Assembly (NCBI GenBank): GCA_951406725.2
Contig: OX597817.1
Coordinates: 68,758,001-68,822,000 of the forward strand
Reading direction: 5' to 3'
From: Octopus vulgaris
Taxonomy: Eukaryota
Length of the DNA stretch: 64,000 bases
Numbering within the stretch: the first letter of the stretch is position 1; each line of letters opens with the position of its first letter. The notes under the pieces are model-generated. The model made no database searches. It saw only the letters and a program-made list of their open reading frames with translations, and was not told the DNA's origin. Of the stretch, positions 1,807-50,488 are shown one piece after another. Both the position numbers and the translations under genes were made by a program.

Positions 1807-2150
1807 GGAAGAGCATCATAGCCATGTGTTGAGAGGGATTCTTTGGGGTTTGAATAATTCACCTCTGGAAACATGCGTGTTTCATTCAACACCCTTAAAC
1901 AACCCTTATTCAGGGACCTTTTGAGTGGGATGGGTTACTCGACCAGAAGAAAATTCTAACTGGGCCCCACCTGCAAGGTCATGTGCTGTTTATCTTGATA
2001 TGAGATCACCATGTTGCACACACATGGTTGTGATGCATGTGCCTAGCGTACCCTTATCAGACAGGTAGTCATGATGGGTATACTGGGCTCCATATATTTT
2101 ATCCCAGTGTCACTTTGATGGCATGCACTGCTCTCTCACTCAATAATAAT
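1807..2150 (+). mobile_element. Family D: non-coding TAA-flanked retroelement, 5'-truncated copy
   Basis: Colinear with 49232-49570 and 36025-36360. Preceded by (TAA)n and ends CTCTCTCACTC(AAT)n. Confidence 0.8.
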
Positions 2151-34940: not shown

Positions 34941-35854
34941 GTTTAAAGGAAAGAAAAGGTGGTTGTGTCACACTTATGGATATTGCCAACTTGCAAATAA
35001 AACAACAACAATACTGCCTCAGTTTTTTTAACACTCAAATGAAGGTTAAGAGCCCCGAATATTAAATTTTTCATTGTTTGTTCCAAACAAAATTACCAAA
35101 TTCTTTTATGAAATCTCTGATGGACTAATTGTTTCCAATACTAGTTTCATAAGATTTTGGAATTTACCCTAAAAATATTTCAGTATTCTGTTTCATCTTT
35201 CTAGTTTTATCATTCAAATACCGACAAGTTAAGCTTTACGTTTCATGTTTAAAAACCCATAAAGTAATTCTTTTTCTTCCTCTTTATTTCCATTCCTTGC
35301 TATACTGCTGATCAGCCTCAGACAATTTGATACTGCATCAGTCTTCCTATGAGTAGAAGCTGCTAGCCTCTCACTCAACTAAATCTCTATTTCTGGAGTA
35401 AAGAATGATGTAAGTGGTTTACCAGAACATTTCCTCTGACAAAACATACTAGACTCCAAGAAAAAGGGAAAGAAGAACAAACCCTAGTACTTGACCAGTA
35501 TTTTATTTACCACCCCTAGAAGAATAAATGATGTATAGACTTCAATATGCAGAGAACTGGAAAAAATAGAGCAAAGCGTTCTGTTCATTCTATCCAATGC
35601 TTTAAGGGTTTGGTTAATTTGCCACCTGATATATTGTTATACAGACTCCAAGAGGATTTGAGGAAAAGTTAACTTGGTGGTATTTGAACTCAAAACATAA
35701 AAAGCCACAAGAAATGCAGCGTAGCACTTTGTTCATTCAATTCAACCAACTCACCACTTTAATAATAATAATAATAATTTTTTTCAAACCTGAGAGTTCA
35801 TCTCAGTAGAATATGAACTTATAATGTAAAGATGGACAAAATACTGCTAAGCAT

Positions 35855-36360
35855 TGGCAATGTTATCATGAACATTGTTTTTTCTTGGTACAAAAGATGG
35901 GCTACAGCAAATATTCTACTCAGTATCACGGATTTGCTTGTCAGTTGCTTGACTGTAACCAGTTGAGCATGTCTTTAAGTGGCTGATGATATGTACATCT
36001 CTGATCCTGAGCAGGAGTAATGGAGAAGCATCATAGCCATATGTAGAGTGAGATTCTTTGGAGTTTGAATAATTCACCTCTGCAAAAATAGGCATTCCAT
36101 TCATCATTCTTACACAAACCTTATTCAGGTATATTTTGAGCAGAATATGCTACTCGACTCGAAGAAAATTCTTACTGGGCTCCACCTGCAAGTTCATATG
36201 CTGTTTATCTCGATATGAGATCACCATGTTGTGCACATGTTGTTGTGATGCATGTGCCTGGTGTACCCCAATCAGACAGGCAGTCATGATGGGTATACTG
36301 GACTTCATGTATTTGTACCCCAGTGTCACTTAGATGGCATGTGCTGCTCTGTTACTTACT
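35855..36360 (+). mobile_element. Family D copy (longer)
   Basis: GATGGGCTACAGCAAATATTCT...GAGATCACCATG...CCCAGTGTCACTT shared with the other copies. Confidence 0.8.
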
Positions 36361-38246: not shown

Positions 38247-39469
38247 TGTGTGTGTGAACTTAATCCTCTGGCTACATTTCATAACTGAACAAAACATTGT
38301 TAAATGGTGCAAGATGTCCTGATTTGACAGGCAAGGGTGGCATTGAGGTAAGTCTCAGTAAAGAAGAAAAATATTTTGTATCATAATGATTATGTTAGTA
38401 TAGACATATTTAACACAGGGTGCATTAAAAAGCCAATGAGGCTTTTGTTACCTGTTTCAGTCATTAGACTCCAGCTATAAGGAGAAGGGAAGAAAAAAAC
38501 AATTAACTCAAAATTATTGACTGATATTATTGTTAATTATATTATGTTCTGATTTGCCAGACCTCAGTCAAATCGTCCAACCCATGCTAGCATGGAAAGC
38601 GGACGTTAAATGATGATGATGATGATGATGATGATGTTCAGGAGAATAATTCTGGACATGTTTTGGTATCATTTAGCCTCCTCAACAAAATGAATACCTT
38701 ACCATATTTACTAGAGTAAAGTAGAAATATTCAGTGAATAAATTACATTGTATAACAAAATTTTAATATTTTTTTTTTGTCTTTGATCAGTAAGTGGTAT
38801 TTCCTATTTGCTTCTCTAGAAATCAAAGGACATGATTACTATTCCCTTCAAACTTTTCTTTTGTGATTTGGACATTAATGCTTTGAAACTGACCAATTTT
38901 CCATTACATTTCAGTCAGATTCAGCATTGAGTTGCTGAAGCAGAAATATCATTACAACAAATCTTCTGCTCAATACTACAAATATGCTTGTCAGTTGCTT
39001 GACCATAACCAATAGAGCATGTCCCTTAGTAGCTGGCAATATATGTATCTCTAATCATGAGCAGGGGTAGTGGTGGAGCATCATAGCCTTGTGTTGAGAG
39101 AGATTCTTTGGGGTTTGAATAAATGTGACAAAAGCAAAGTTTGAAGGAAATATTAGCTATTTTTCATACTTTCAAGAGGTAAGCAAATAAGAAATAACAG
39201 TTGTTACCAAAGGACACAAATCGTATTTCACAGTGTTAGTCTTAGATGCCAATTATGGTAAAAGCTTCATATTTTATCTCTTTATTTCTAGAGGAAAGAC
39301 ATAATTTCATTGTGGAGCAAAACAGTGACTTGTATACCTGAAAAGCCAGAGGTGCTCGTTTTCACACCTTAAATTGTTGCTTACAAATATGTAGGTTAAG
39401 CTTGATGATAAAATATTAGCTATTATCAGTGACAGAAGCAGTATTAATACCATAAGACAATTTAATCTT

Positions 39470-43854: not shown

Positions 43855-44224
43855 TGACCAGATATTATTGTTCTAGACAAGAGGGAATAAGAGAGTGCAA
43901 CGTCATAGATGTGGGTATGCATATAGGGGTCAAAGAACAAGAGAAAACAGCAAAATACCAGGATTTGGTTAGGGAAATACAAAGACTATGGAGGGTTTCT
44001 ACAAAAGTTCTCTCAGTTGTCTTAGGTACCTGAGGCACCATCACCAACAGACTTCACAGTTTCATTATTGAAATTGATGTAACTATGATAGTTGTATTAT
44101 TTCAGAAATCTGTTCAACTTGGAACAGCAAGGATCGTGAGAAAGGTCCTCAGTATCTAAGGAAACTGGTTGCGACTCAGTATCAAGGAGATTGATTCTGA
44201 ATGCAGACCATTCATGCACACCAT
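43855..44224 (+). mobile_element. 3' fragment (RLE domain + 3' UTR) of an older, divergent R4/Dong-like element
   Basis: Disrupted translation PDIIVLDK...VIDVG...KEQEKTAKYQDLVREIQRLWRVSTKVLSVVLGT*GTI...FQKSVQLGTARIVRKVLSI* parallels the C-terminus of the intact ORF. Ends in (AAT)n. Confidence 0.85.
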
Positions 44225-44252
44225 TAATAATAATGATAATAATAATAATAAC

Positions 44253-44305
<53 letters not shown>

Positions 44306-44307
44306 TG

Positions 44308-44338
<31 letters not shown>

Positions 44339-44340
44339 TG

Positions 44341-44372
<32 letters not shown>
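44224..44372 (+). repeat. (AAT)n microsatellite, ~50 units with GAT/AAC variants
   Basis: Seen directly. Target and tail of the R4/Dong elements. Confidence 0.98.
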
Positions 44373-44375
<3 letters not shown>

Positions 44376-47300
44376 CGTGATACACTTCCTAAAATGGATG
44401 AGCGTGATACACTTCCTAAAATCCGCAACTCTAACCAAAACATGAAAATAATTGGTAAAATCCGGCTTGCACTTAAGGATATAATTTCAGTTAATGATGT
44501 TGATATCACAAACCTCAACCACCTATACTATGCATCCGCGAAAATCTCAACGATCCTATGTGGTGTAAAGATTAGAAAACGGCAACAGTCCCACAAAAAG
44601 CCTTCTTGGCAAGAGCGTCTGCAACAACAAATTAAAATATTTAGATCTGACATTGAATATTTGAAAAACCTTAAGGCTCACAAGATTACCAAACCTACAA
44701 AAACCCCAAAATTACTGAAAAAATACAATATGAAAACTATACTTGATATTGATGCCACCATAGAAACCATCAAACAAAAGGTATCTGCCAAAGCTGCCCG
44801 CATAGCGAGGTATGAAAAGCGTGTTAGATTTTTCAAGGACAACAACATGTTCAAAAATAACACCAAGAATTTTTACAGGAAGATAGGAAAAACAGCGTTT
44901 ACTGCAGGGTCTGTACCATCAAAAGAAGAAGTGCAGAGATTTTGGAATAAAATCTGGGCAGAAGAAAAAACACACAACGAAAAGGCCCCCTGGATTGACA
45001 GAATATCTACAGAACTGGACCCCTTAGAAGAGCAAAAGTGGGAGGGTGTCAAGGTAGAAGATATAAGATCTGCTCTCAGGAGGTCAAGCAAATGGAAGTC
45101 TCCAGGAAAGGATAAAATTCCTAACTTCTGGCTGAATGCCTTCCCAGAGAGCCATGAACTGCTAACAGAACTGTACAATGATGTTTTGCAACACTCTAGT
45201 AGGATGCCTCCTTGGCTAGTTAATGGGTTAACATTCCTGCTTCCAAAAAGTGAAGAAACAAATGAACCAAAAAACTATAGACCCATAACCTGCTTAACAA
45301 CTATGTACAAAACACTAACATCTGTCCTGACGGAATATACCTATAGTTTTTTAACAGACAGCAGCATATTCCCTAATGAACAGAAAGGATGTAAACGTGG
45401 ATCCTACGGCTGTAAAGACCAACTACTCATCAATAAGATGATCTTAGAAGATTGTCACAAACGACACAAAAACTTATCAATAGCCTGGATAGACTATAAA
45501 AAGGCTTTTGATAGCCTACCACATAGCTGGATTAGGAAATGCCTTGAAATGTATAAGATAGCACCAACTCTGCGAAACTTCTTGACTGTAAGTATGAGAT
45601 CATGGAGAACCACACTAACTCTGAACAGTGACAGTGAATCCCTAAATGCTGGTGATGTAAAAATTTCGTGTGGCATTTTCCAGGGTGACTCACTGTCACC
45701 ACTCCTCTTTTGTTTATCCTTAATACCTCTCTCAAAGCTGCTCAATGATGCGCAGTACGGGTATAAAATGTTTGATAAAAATATAAATCATCTCGTTTAC
45801 ATGGATGATTTAAAGCTTTTTGCAAAAAATGATCAACAACTCAAGGGCTTACTAGCGATAGTCAAACAATTCAGTGATGACATCAGAATGCAATTCGGCC
45901 TCGATAAATGTGCAAAGGCTACCTTTATCAAAGGAAAAATGACAGAAACATCTAACGTTAACCTTGACCAACAGAATGTCATAAAAGAACTAGACCCAGC
46001 GGAGAGCTACAAGTACCTAGGGATAATTGAAGGGAACGGAATAAGGCATTCAGAGATGAAGGAAAGGATCAGGAGAGAATGCTATCGAAGAGTGAGAGCA
46101 ATACTCAAGACAGAGCTGAATGCAAGAAACAGGATCGAAGCAATCAATGCATTAGCTATACCAGTCGTGACTTACAGTTTCAATATTGTTAACTGGTCAA
46201 TTACTGAAATATGTCAGCTCGACAGAAAAATAAGGAAACTGTTGACAATGCATAGAATGCACCACCCTAAGGCAGATACAGAACGACTCTATCTGCCAAG
46301 AAAAGAGGGAGGCCGTGGTCTTTTGCAACTGGCAATAACAATGAAGATTGCTACAATTGGCCTAGACACCTACCTGAAAAACTCTGAGGACTGGATGCTA
46401 AAACTTGTCTCAAAACATGAAAACAAGAAAGCATCATACTCAGTCACAAAACAGGCAAAGGAATATCTAAGTGAATTCCGAATACAACCAATTTCGAAAT
46501 TAGAGATAGATATACAAGAAACAAGCACAGAAAAAGCTAGGCGCATGAAAACCCGTGCCAAAACTGCGGCCTTAGATATTCTGAATAATAAATGGCAAGA
46601 AAAACCTCTCTATGGCAAATACCCAAAGAGAGCGAATAATGCAGATATCGACAAAGCCCTGACCCATCAATGGCTAATGGCCTCTGGCTTAAAATCTGAA
46701 ACAGAGGGGTTTATCATAGCAGCTCAAGATCAATGCCTACCAACAAGAAACTACCAGGCCAACATATTAAAGATCAGAAGCAGTCCAACGTGTCGTGTAT
46801 GCAAGCAACAAAATGAAACCACTGACCATGTGGTCTCCAAGTGCAGTCTTCTAGCGCCTACAGAGTATCTCAACAGGCACGATAGAGCTGCACAATATAT
46901 TCACTGGGTAATCTGTAAAAACCTGGATTTGCCCCATGAAAAAAACTGGTGGGAACACAAACCACCCCCAGTGCTTGAAAATGACCACATCTCACTCCTC
47001 TGGAACTTCACCATTCAAACTGACAGGAAGATAGATGCAAATAGGCCAGACATCATATTGAAAAACTTCACACAAAGAACATGCCTCCTCATTGATATGA
47101 CTGTCCCAATCAATATAAACGTATCTGTCAAGACCTACCAAAAACTGAGCAAATATAAAGATCTTGAAATAGAAATCAGCAAAATGTGGAAGCTGAAGAC
47201 TAAAACAATACCTGTTGTCATAGGTGCCCTGGGAATGATAGCAAAAGGGGCTGATAGCTACCTAACTCAGATACCAGGAAACCCAAAAATGGCAGAAGTT

Positions 47301-47571
47301 CAAAAGATAGTGCTCATGGGAACTGCTCATATCCTACGCAAAATACTCTCTATGTAATCTCAAGGTTTAAAACAAACATAATTTTCGGTTTAAAAAAAAA
47401 AAAAAAAAATTTTTTTTTTTTTAGACATTCATTAGTACAACATCCCCACCCCCCAAATATATGGCACACTAGGCATAACAACAACATGAACTTCCAACCC
47501 TGTTGTCTCTTGAGGTCTCTGGGTGAGACTTGGAGCCAACTTGTACAAATATAAAGCAAAAGTCAAACATA

Positions 47572-47572
<1 letters not shown>
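44371..47572 (+). mobile_element. Young R4/Dong-type LINE copy inserted in (TAA)n
   Basis: Intact ORF, ~215 bp 3' UTR (47358-47572), (AAT)n on both sides (44224-44372 and 47573-47613). TAA-repeat targeting is the known behaviour of Dong. Confidence 0.9.
44394..47357 (+). CDS. Non-LTR retrotransposon protein, R4/Dong clade (reverse transcriptase + CCHC zinc knuckle + restriction-like endonuclease), 987 aa from ATG 44394, probably 5'-truncated
   Basis: Stop-free frame with RT motifs KWKSPGKDKI, NYRPITCLTTMYK, EQKGCKRG, IAWIDYKKAFDSLPHSW, GIFQGDSLSPLLF, HLVYMDDLKL (YMDD 45798-45809) and YKYLG. These are followed by RLYLPRKEGGRGL, CRVC-x8-H-x4-C, RHD and the RLE motif NRPDII...IDMTVP...KLSKYKDL. 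No APE domain. Confidence 0.95.
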   Translation: MDERDTLPKIRNSNQNMKIIGKIRLALKDIISVNDVDITNLNHLYYASAKISTILCGVKIRKRQQSHKKPSWQERLQQQIKIFRSDIEYLKNLKAHKITKPTKTPKLLKKYNMKTILDIDATIETIKQKVSAKAARIARYEKRVRFFKDNNMFKNNTKNFYRKIGKTAFTAGSVPSKEEVQRFWNKIWAEEKTHNEKAPWIDRISTELDPLEEQKWEGVKVEDIRSALRRSSKWKSPGKDKIPNFWLNAFPESHELLTELYNDVLQHSSRMPPWLVNGLTFLLPKSEETNEPKNYRPITCLTTMYKTLTSVLTEYTYSFLTDSSIFPNEQKGCKRGSYGCKDQLLINKMILEDCHKRHKNLSIAWIDYKKAFDSLPHSWIRKCLEMYKIAPTLRNFLTVSMRSWRTTLTLNSDSESLNAGDVKISCGIFQGDSLSPLLFCLSLIPLSKLLNDAQYGYKMFDKNINHLVYMDDLKLFAKNDQQLKGLLAIVKQFSDDIRMQFGLDKCAKATFIKGKMTETSNVNLDQQNVIKELDPAESYKYLGIIEGNGIRHSEMKERIRRECYRRVRAILKTELNARNRIEAINALAIPVVTYSFNIVNWSITEICQLDRKIRKLLTMHRMHHPKADTERLYLPRKEGGRGLLQLAITMKIATIGLDTYLKNSEDWMLKLVSKHENKKASYSVTKQAKEYLSEFRIQPISKLEIDIQETSTEKARRMKTRAKTAALDILNNKWQEKPLYGKYPKRANNADIDKALTHQWLMASGLKSETEGFIIAAQDQCLPTRNYQANILKIRSSPTCRVCKQQNETTDHVVSKCSLLAPTEYLNRHDRAAQYIHWVICKNLDLPHEKNWWEHKPPPVLENDHISLLWNFTIQTDRKIDANRPDIILKNFTQRTCLLIDMTVPININVSVKTYQKLSKYKDLEIEISKMWKLKTKTIPVVIGALGMIAKGADSYLTQIPGNPKMAEVQKIVLMGTAHILRKILSM

Positions 47573-47614: not shown

Positions 47615-49020
47615 CCATTCTATGAATAAATGGTAGACAGTGCTACAGCTCCAAACAAAAGAGGAACTTGTAAAAAAACAAAGCCATCCCCATTAGAAGA
47701 GGAATATTCCAAGGAGACACACTCTCTCCACTCCTTTTCTGCTTGGCACTGATACCTTTATCTAACATGCTAAACAGAACTGGAAGCAGATACAACTGTT
47801 ATGGCAAAACAATCAGCCACCTCTTATATATGGATGACCTAAAACTGTGTGCTACAAATGATAAACAGCTGGAAACATTATTATGGAGATTACATGGATT
47901 TACCAAAGACATATGAAATTTGGCTTAAAAAAAATGTACCAAAGCAACCTTGAAAAGAGGAAAACTAGTTAAGAGTAGCAACATCACACTAGATAAAGCA
48001 AATGAAATAAGAGAATTAGACCAAAACTAGACATATAAATATTTAGTAATCAATGAACTAGATATGATACAACATACAAATGAAAGAGAAGATAAAAAAA
48101 GAGTACTATAGATGAGTTAGATTAATACTGAAAACAGAGCTCAATGTGAAAAACAAGATAATAGGTATCAACACTTTAGCCATCTCAGTTATAAGTTACA
48201 GCTACAATATCCTTAGCTGGACATTAAATGAACTAATCAAAATAGACAGGAGAACAAGAAAAATAATGATAGGATTCAGGATTCAACACCCAAAATCTGA
48301 CATAGAAAGGTTATATATACAATGTATAGAAGGTGGTAGAGGCCTTATACAGCTAGAAAAATACTACAAAGTAACCATCATAGGACTACAGAAATACCTA
48401 CTTCAGAAGCAAGGAAAACTAATACAAATAGCCACAGAACACGAATAAAACAAAAAACTGTTTTCAGTATTTAAGGAAGCTGACAAATACAAACAAGAAA
48501 TCACACTATCTGACAACTATGAAGAAAAAGAAGAAACAACAAAAGCTGTAAAACGAATGAAATCCAAACTAATACTAGAACAGCAACAGATCATGATAAA
48601 ATGATGGCAAGAAAAGCCCCTTCATGGCAAATACTGGGTTAAACTAAATGTAAAAGAAATAAACAAGGCAAAATACCAACAATGGCTGAGAAGCCCAGGG
48701 CTTAAAGCAGAGACTGAAGGATTTTTAATTGCAGCACAAGACCAAAGCCTCCACACCAGAAATTACCAAAAACATATGATGAAATGACGCATAACAAGTA
48801 ACTGCAGAATATGTGGAGATGGACAAGGAATAACAAATCATATTGTCTCTGGTTGCTCAGTCCTGGCTAAGAAGGAATATATTCACAGACACAACAAAGT
48901 TGGGACCTACATACACTGTAAGCTATGCCAACACTATGGAATAACAATAGAAAAAGATGCTATAAGCAGATGCCAGAAAAGGTCACAGAAAATGAGAAAG
49001 CAACAATACTATGGGATAGA
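47614..49020 (+). pseudogene. Decayed, doubly truncated R4/Dong RT (different subfamily)
   Basis: RRGIFQGDTLSPLLFCLALIPL, HLLYMDDLKL, HPKSDIERLYIQCIEGGRGLIQL, LKAETEGFLIAAQDQSL, CRICGD...HIVSGC and ENEKATILWD, with stops and frameshifts. Starts right after the TAA run. Confidence 0.93.
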
Positions 49021-49027
49021 GAAATAT

Positions 49028-49572
49028 GAGTATATTGGGCTTCATATAATTGTACCCCAGTCTCACTGTGATGGCATGCACTACTCTCACTCAATAATAA
49101 CAATGGGCTACAGCAAATATTCTGCTTAATACAACAGATTTGGTTCTCAGTTATTTGACCATAACCAGTTGAACATGTCCCTTAGTGGCTGATGATATGT
49201 GTATCTCTGATCACGAGCAGAGGTAGTGGGGGAGCATCATAGCCATGTGTTGAGAGGAATTCTTTGGGGTTTGAATAACTCACCTTTGGAAATATGGGTG
49301 TTTCATTTAATATACTTACACAACCCTTATTCAGGGACCTTTTGTGTGGGATGGGATACTTGACCTGAAGAAAATTCGAACTGGGCTGCACCTGTAAGGT
49401 CATGTGCAGTTTATCTTGATATGAGATCACCATGTTGCGCACATGTGCTTGTGATGCATGTGTTTGGTGTACCCTTATCAGACGGGTAATCATGATAGGT
49501 ATACTGGACTTCATGTATTTTACCGCAGTGTCACTTTGATGGCATTTATTGCTCTCTCACTCAATAATAATA
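49028..49572 (+). mobile_element. Two tandem family D copies (short 3' end 49028-49092; longer copy 49103-49562)
   Basis: Both end CTCTCACTC-AATAATAA, immediately downstream of the decayed R4 RT. Confidence 0.8.
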
Positions 49573-49792
49573 ATTACAATTATTATTATTATTATTATCG
49601 TAATAGCTGGAGGTGTGTTTTTGGAGCACTGTAAGTTTATGATTAATTCACTTGTTTAAAAGGTTCTATACTGTATTTTGTTGTTTAAATCATTTTGTAA
49701 CCAGCTGTCCTTCCATGAGGCTGACATTTGTTAACCAAGAGTAATACAAACCCTTTTGTCTTCAAATTTCTTTGAAAATTTGCTTTGAAGAA

Positions 49793-49994
49793 GCTCCCCA
49801 ACTACTTCTGATCATATCATCAGCTACTAAAGGACATGCTCAACTGGTTAAGGTCAAGTAACTGACAAGCAAATCTGTGGTATGGAGCAGAATATTTGCT
49901 GTAGCCCATCTTTTACACCAAAACAAAACAATGTACATGATAACACTTCCAACCAGTTAAGATCAAAAGACATGGGAGCCACTGCATAAGGGCT
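49793..49994 (-). mobile_element. Family D 5' portion, inverted
   Basis: Reverse complement matches 35860-36030 and extends further 5'. Abuts (ATT)n at 49995-50062. Confidence 0.75.
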
Positions 49995-50016
49995 ATTATT
50001 ATCATCATCATCATCA

Positions 50017-50056
<40 letters not shown>

Positions 50057-50488
50057 CATTATCATGTTCTGTACCTGTATGAAATTTTTCCACTTTAAGC
50101 AATGTTGTGCATTACCAAATGTAATTCAATAATGGACGGGCTAACTGCTGAATCATGGTTTAGATAGTCCCCAAACCACTGTAAAAGGATTTCATATCAT
50201 GCTTCTAATCTAGATCCAATAAAGAGGAGGTTAAGATATTTCTTTTCACTCCATGAGGATTTTGTACCATTTGATAAATTTTCCTCAATAATCACAACTA
50301 ACCCAATTAATAGAAAAATGTGAAATAAATTATTTTAGCAATTAAAATGTTATAATGATGTAGTGATCACGCTTCCCCTCACTTCACACTGAAGGAAACT
50401 CCCTCCTATCCAGCACCACTGAATTTTCCGCATTTCTGATCATTATTTCTAGATTAATTTAGCACTTTACAAAACTCATTAAAACTCC

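Follow-up and report, generated by a model that had tools for sequence, protein, structure and literature searches.

Family D copies and Dong-type LINEs at the locus

The window, by which we mean the whole 64,000-nt stretch of octopus DNA analysed here, contains both copies of a repeat that we call family D and LINEs of the Dong/R4 type (Table 1). Window copies were aligned to a 556-nt majority sequence, D, built from 29 genomic copies. All five copies listed in an earlier note on this DNA were found and are mutually homologous, and a sixth piece, absent from that list, lies within a MITE-like repeat, family E. The copies at 1811, 49026 and 49103 end in CTCTCACTC-(AAT)n, as had been claimed for three of them, and the TAA described at most 5' junctions is present as an array in three of the five listed copies, with none at 35853 or 49026. 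The piece at 49026 abuts a broken Dong family B coding sequence and is followed by AATAATAACA and then by the next D copy. On the minus strand, 49985-49813 corresponds to D21-193 at 93% identity, and the copy reaches back to about D3 at 49994. It had been read as an inverted 5' part, but because this copy and the one at 49103 both contain D97-193, it cannot be an inversion of the latter; instead, it is a separate insertion in its own array that has lost its 3' half. An unrelated older repeat (window 49600-49790; 85 candidates, 75-90% alike) adjoins it.

Table 1. Family D copies and Dong-type LINEs in the window
Feature	Position	Strand	Remarks
D copy	1811..2141	+	D226-556, 95%; flanked by arrays on both sides
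Older D copy	35853..36356	+	D53-555, 86%; both ends now without array
D103-272 within MITE-like family E repeat	38953..39122	+	Not an independent D insertion
Third Dong family, 3' end with short UTR	43890..44222	+	Ends in array 44225-44372
Dong family A copy	44371..47572	+	Truncated at the 5' end, with a head duplication of 27 bp and a TAA array at either end; contains RT, CCHC knuckle and restriction-like endonuclease
Broken Dong family B coding sequence	47686..49025	+	Covers RT up to the beginning of the endonuclease; a D piece stands where the 3' end is missing
Short D 3' piece	49026..49092	+	D489-556; aligned part 49026-49088 = D489-550, 89%
Family D copy	49103..49562	+	D97-556, 5'-truncated, 90% to majority
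(AAT)n array, 3' junction of the 49103 copy	49563..49574	+	
Separate D insertion, 5' part only	49793..49994	-	~D3-230, two small deletions; 5' end in array 49994-50062

The long ORF of the window contains a reverse transcriptase (RT) domain and matches solved R2 proteins. A candidate partner for D, namely a single ORF with RT, CCHC knuckle and restriction-like endonuclease in an element with a TAA target, is present, the endonuclease motif having been read by eye. The name Dong/R4 rests on anatomy, target and the literature, where Dong is described as a restriction-like-endonuclease element inserting into TAA repeats (PMC1635306); recently active Dong-R4 families are reported from octopus, together with 893 unclassified SINE families (PMC13282606). 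Dong family A is very young, with many open frames of ~1,280-1,320 residues, and full-length copies measure ~4.9 kb with a 5' UTR of ~900 nt; its copy in the window is one candidate donor of the enzyme. LINEs of the Dong type that end in (AAT)n form at least 18 groups. Many full-length copies of families A and B carry GGACGT within their first 20 nt, a motif that we take to resemble a downstream promoter element, and at their 5' junctions additional purines and repeated heads are frequent.

Family D is a discrete non-coding unit

When 29 aligned loci were extended upstream, as the earlier note had proposed, they arrived at a discrete, fixed 5' end, ATGCCCTGATGC..., and at no RT or endonuclease ORF. 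D is a unit of 556 nt with 45% G+C, and outside both of its ends lie triplet arrays and then unrelated sequence. It contains no ORF, with frequent stops in all six frames, so the family is non-coding as first described, in a unit of 556 nt rather than the suggested minimum of ~600 bp. D has no terminal inverted repeats (its longest self inverted match is 8 nt), and the 24 full-length copies have no target-site duplication (TSD) other than array sequence, the two apparent TSDs among them both being array variants. The hallmarks of a DNA transposon, which had been named as evidence against retroposition, are thus missing, and we rejected a MITE or other DNA transposon because D has neither terminal inverted repeats nor a fixed-length TSD. 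D resembles a SINE in being short and non-coding, with discrete ends, a tail of repeats and some copies truncated at the 5' end. Local tandem clusters of D tails and D heads also occur (C8:76829637-76837710; C1:30148145-30149001).

Several long stems are predicted for the sense strand (z = -3.5, 1/100 shuffles as good), whereas the antisense strand folds no better than shuffles (z = +0.64). Among 25 common variants we found no compensatory base change: nine keep a pair, seven break one and nine are unpaired (two of the 27 variant rows, private to the reference copy, were left out). The fold is therefore a prediction only.

Family D is abundant, and both old and recently active

Abundance was estimated from 1.2 Mb sampled evenly over C1-C23, as 120 stretches of 10 kb placed at round coordinates. 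Here 23 matches merged into 21 D copies that occupy 9,117 bp, or 0.76% of the sampled sequence, which for a genome of 2.8 Gb corresponds to ~49,000 copies (Poisson range roughly 30,000-75,000). Ten of the 21 copies start at nt 1-2, 14 within nt 1-16 and 18 within nt 1-65; the variable 5' ends seen in the window are thus real but unrepresentative. The other three are truncated at nt 246-249, where a strong stem is a possible stop point.

Identity to the D majority runs from 74% to 98% in the even sample and up to 99.6% in the best loci, and this wide range indicates that D was active long ago and has also been active recently. The majority of 17 copies with less than 93% identity differs from D at 5/556 positions, a figure that leans low because the comparison is anchored on D. 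Young copies show several alternative letters at 30-50% frequency. D is also abundant in contigs of runs X15, X18, X19, X20 and X6, whose labels name other organisms, and in X18 and X19 the majority letter differs at some sites; going by the run labels, the family is common to related species. In four runs that were guessed to be RNA, the contigs cover 30/30 bins of D; contigs, however, give neither strand nor start nor level, and many other transcripts or DNA have D embedded in them.

Family E (window ~38745-39234) measures ~480 bp and has imperfect terminal inverted repeats; a first look gave 5,579 candidates, and its copies are ~86% alike. It carries D103-272, the majority of which is 96% identical to D, and the same two joints between D and family E recur as loose ends in contigs of four runs. 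Because older D copies include D103-272, capture by family E from D is the likelier direction.

D and Dong share target and junctions

Genome-wide, 4,946 exact 27-nt D heads were found, 2,638 of them (53%) directly after TAATAA and 83 after two G/C letters. Among 30 of these 83 viewed by eye, all but one or two are head duplications (here, tandem repeats of the first 15-40 nt) or still lie beside an array. Exact D tails continue with AAT in 12,692 cases, as against 171 that continue with a base other than A, and 19 of 20 viewed from the latter group still enter an AAT/GAT array. An array begins within 15 nt downstream of 63/69 3'-intact matches, at loci chosen by searches rather than evenly sampled, compared with 2.07% of 20,000 random positions, and AATAAT directly follows 54 of these 69 tails. 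Scoring the junctions, a check that the earlier note had called for, thus finds them enriched for TAA.

The resident Dong families show a similar pattern. In both A and B, the 5' end follows a TAA array and the 3' junction has the phase seen in D: AATAA follows 25/25 Dong A tails, 22/27 Dong B tails and 46/71 matches to a short D tail pattern, which also catches partial and chance matches. Head duplications occur at the 5' end of 5/24 D, 3/11 Dong A and 8/18 Dong B copies. Extra purines at the 5' junction are usual in full-length Dong A and B but mostly absent in D. In the even sample, the sense-polarity 3' ends that cluster before (AAT)n belong to D and the Dong families, whereas the common SINEs that abut the same arrays, presumably of tRNA type from their features, have the opposite polarity. 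D and the resident Dong/R4-type LINEs therefore have in common their target, polarity, 3' junction phase and tandem 5' head duplication.

Dong coding sequence is present in 24/49 D loci (22 on the same strand, two on the opposite) as against 51/360 even tiles, a co-location that follows from the shared target. Direct joints from Dong to D without an array were seen by eye in 2/88 matches (window 49017-49030 and a second locus); such joints may have arisen when the template was switched from D RNA to Dong RNA, or by deletion following separate insertions.

D has no detectable end from the Dong families compared

A SINE usually has its 3' tail in common with its partner LINE, although exceptions exist, and a SIDE is defined by ends derived from the partner LINE. 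We compared D with 118 Dong 3' UTRs, which form ~18 groups and, since overlapping loci were kept, represent fewer independent ends, and found no blastn match at E < 0.5; nor did D match the 5' UTRs of Dong A and B. Thus, D lacks the shared tail of a SINE against these 118 3' ends, and the partner-derived ends of a SIDE against the same 3' ends and the 5' ends of two families. It does occupy the partner's target with partner-like junctions, so the term SIDE-like, used in the earlier note, fits its way of life but not its ends.

A two-stem hairpin with an invariant AGG 34-50 nt before the 3' end is common to nine divergent Dong families (window 47505-47543 and 44151-44189). Its covariation exceeds 500/500 shuffles and all slid controls, although these controls lean favourable because the segments were picked by pattern and the structure was drawn from them. 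The hairpin is a candidate recognition signal for Dong. A loosely similar hairpin in D, GGG..CCCAG, closes 34 nt from the 3' end, within the 34-60 nt at which Dong families have AGG..CYYRR. However, the relaxed hairpin pattern matches D at 8 places, so that one match in the right zone is likely due to chance. A covariance model of the Dong hairpin gave a best E of 1.8 on D, a weak negative because the model scored only 1/9 held-out loci.

One alternative, compatible with mobilisation by Dong, is that the ends of D are old UTRs of a Dong family that is extinct or that our sample missed, which would make D a SIDE or a shared-tail SINE of that family. Our comparison covered ~18 3' UTR groups and two 5' UTRs, whereas 51 Dong-R4 consensus sequences are listed in the published octopus library (PMC13282606 supplement); D is old, with copies as divergent as 74% identity, and its hairpin sits at a Dong-like distance. 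Yet the 118 UTRs gave no match, the hairpin evidence is weakened by the chance matches and the covariance model, and the D source has barely changed between the old and young majorities, so that a shared tail should still show if the partner family survives. We consider this origin unlikely, if still worth weighing.

Searches for a known small-RNA precursor

ARAGORN found no tRNA in nine D loci, which bears out the claim that D has no tRNA head, and a tRNA-derived head was rejected. An Rfam family was also rejected, there being only two sub-threshold matches at E <= 10. A 5S-derived head was suggested by a weak colinear alignment, but 69/500 shuffles were as good for nt 1-130 and 28/500 for the whole of D. 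A 7SK-like gene above the Rfam cut-off, with a TATA-like stretch upstream and a T run at its end, lies elsewhere in the genome (C11:99736743-99737023, with two weaker copies); it does not align with D. No B box was found in D by a pattern search, three internal T4 runs are present, and a loose A-box-like TGGC..TGG at nt 25-36 was noted by eye. D thus lacks the tRNA, 5S or 7SL head with internal Pol III promoter of a classical SINE. A pattern search found no hammerhead core with a closing stem, and an HDV-like search with our own descriptor, run without a positive control, found no fold from nt 1 and one internal match of a kind seen in 6/30 shuffles.

Alternatively, a conserved host gene for a non-coding RNA, unannotated and driven from an external promoter, could be the parent, and D copies its processed pseudogenes, repeatedly captured by Dong; this is again compatible with Dong mobilisation. 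The near-static source, as seen in the old majority and in the well-conserved piece within family E, would suit such a gene, as would the strand-specific fold and the failure to find an internal promoter in D. However, the alternative letters in young copies are as expected for multiple source copies, and neither the Rfam, 5S nor 7SK comparison provides a parent gene. Moreover, no master gene, that is, a copy with a unique, non-array 5' flank and a terminator, was present among the 30/83 head and 20/171 tail exceptions viewed. We therefore regard a host gene as improbable.

It is still less probable, indeed very unlikely, that an RTE/CR1/L2-type LINE or a Penelope element mobilised D, with (AAT)n as a slippage tail rather than a target. 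Such elements are described as abundant and recently active in octopus (PMC13282606), and the tRNA SINEs end in the same arrays too. But arrays also lie 5' of D, as the TAATAA-preceded heads show, there are no unique TSDs, and D has the polarity of Dong and not that of the tRNA SINEs; nor did we find a hammerhead core with a closing stem or a common flanking ORF, the UTR comparison having covered Dong LINEs only. Finally, the earlier note's second suggestion, that D is the unusually long 3' UTR of another R4 family, recalls the D piece directly after Dong B coding sequence at 49026 but is already refuted for the bulk of copies and has next to no credibility, because D has a fixed 5' end after arrays in thousands of copies and no ORF in 29 loci, Dong 3' UTRs in the sample are mostly ~70-250 nt long, Dong B has its own of ~100 nt in 47 sampled ends, and direct joints are as rare as noted above.

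A model for the mobilisation of D by Dong

The reading that we favour, and consider likely, sees family D as a SINE-like retroposon, an orphan that Dong mobilises in trans; the enzyme that copies it is probably a Dong protein. D has fixed ends and stacks with Dong, and its target, polarity, phase and pattern of truncation and duplication are as described above. Mobilisation by a TAA-targeting R4/Dong-type enzyme, as originally proposed, is thus supported as likely by the same target, polarity, 3' phase and head duplications, although a target and junctions common to D and Dong are circumstantial evidence, drawn from sequence comparison.

In this model, a full-length D RNA with a fixed 5' end would first be made. 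Its likeliest source, at about even odds, is transcription by RNA polymerase II from an internal promoter; the three internal T4 runs and the failure to find an A/B box match or a ribozyme pattern point that way, and the alternatives are read-through with processing or a single host gene. The RNA is predicted to fold into several long stems, and the Dong protein would bind it without a copied Dong tail, probably through structure and an (AAU)n end able to pair with the cut target. The endonuclease would then cut a (TAA)n array and prime reverse transcription at the 3' end of D, a step suggested by the invariant 3' junction. Synthesis would mostly continue to or near nt 1, sometimes stopping early or repeating the first 15-40 nt, a junction pattern also present in Dong A and B. 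Each insertion leaves an array on either side, so that D lies stacked with several Dong families in head-to-tail order, as is observed.

That D, by the weak model described above, lacks the 3' hairpin of the nine Dong families argues against stringent recognition by those families. More tentatively, and with the balance tipped slightly against it, Dong proteins may copy an unrelated, structured 556-nt RNA in trans into a microsatellite target, in tens of thousands of copies. This RNA would have no borrowed LINE tail, Pol III head or known ribozyme, and template choice would be relaxed or shape-based. Its nearly static source may be a host or selfish RNA under constraint, of a kind not yet described.

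Significance and comparison with known systems

Known parasites of restriction-like-endonuclease retrotransposons, such as R2 SIDEs and EhSINEs, carry a piece of their partner's end. D appears to break this borrowed-end rule at very high copy number, and the surprise appears to be a high-copy, target-specific parasite of such a LINE without a detectable borrowed end. R2 is held to be stringent in reading its own 3' UTR (PMC3414825); if the orphan reading is true, template choice would be relaxed or shape-based in a class of enzymes regarded as stringent. Because young D copies coexist with many open Dong ORFs, the RNA features that a Dong/R4 enzyme needs in its template can be tested directly, and these needs also matter where such enzymes are used to insert genes at specific sites. 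Our analysis also provides a name and a proposed mechanism for a large repeat, one that is probably left unclassified in automated libraries.

D falls outside both the classical SINEs, having no Pol III head, and the SIDEs, having no partner-derived ends among those tested. The literature that we searched describes no non-autonomous element of octopus that depends on Dong, although Repbase, Dfam and the Zenodo library of PMC13282606 may hold D as an unclassified SINE or unknown repeat; in the parts of the Dong literature cited here, no non-autonomous partner is described (PMC1635306, PMC9115989, PMC13282606, PMC8967140). EhSINE1 of Entamoeba histolytica, as described, is similar to D in being 500-600 nt long and non-coding, with no identified small-RNA precursor and only loose A/B boxes, and it is mobilised by a LINE with a restriction-like endonuclease, as we propose for D (PMC2996970, PMC3716655, PMC1635306). 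However, it has a 3' end of ~70 nt in common with EhLINE1, long TSDs and no fixed target (same sources), whereas D has no detectable shared tail and no unique TSD and is tied to (TAA)n. The R2 SIDEs of Drosophila are likewise short, protein-free parasites, with partner-like junctions, at the target of a site-specific restriction-like-endonuclease retrotransposon, but they carry the partner's 5' ribozyme and 3' end and are described as rare (PMC3414825, PMC3774820). D, in contrast, matches neither end of the tested Dong families, shows no HDV-like 5' fold by our uncontrolled descriptor and is present in tens of thousands of copies. Sadhu of Arabidopsis resembles D in having no known head or tail, yet it is a plant element of ~900 bp and moderate copy number, with an ordinary LINE as its inferred partner, and microsatellite specificity is not among the features described in these sources (PMC2848041, PMC4494074). 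Dong LINEs of the R4 clade themselves have the TAA target, polarity, 3' phase, head duplications and stacking that we see in D (PMC1635306, PMC9115989, PMC13282606, PMC8967140) and, unlike D, they encode the enzyme.
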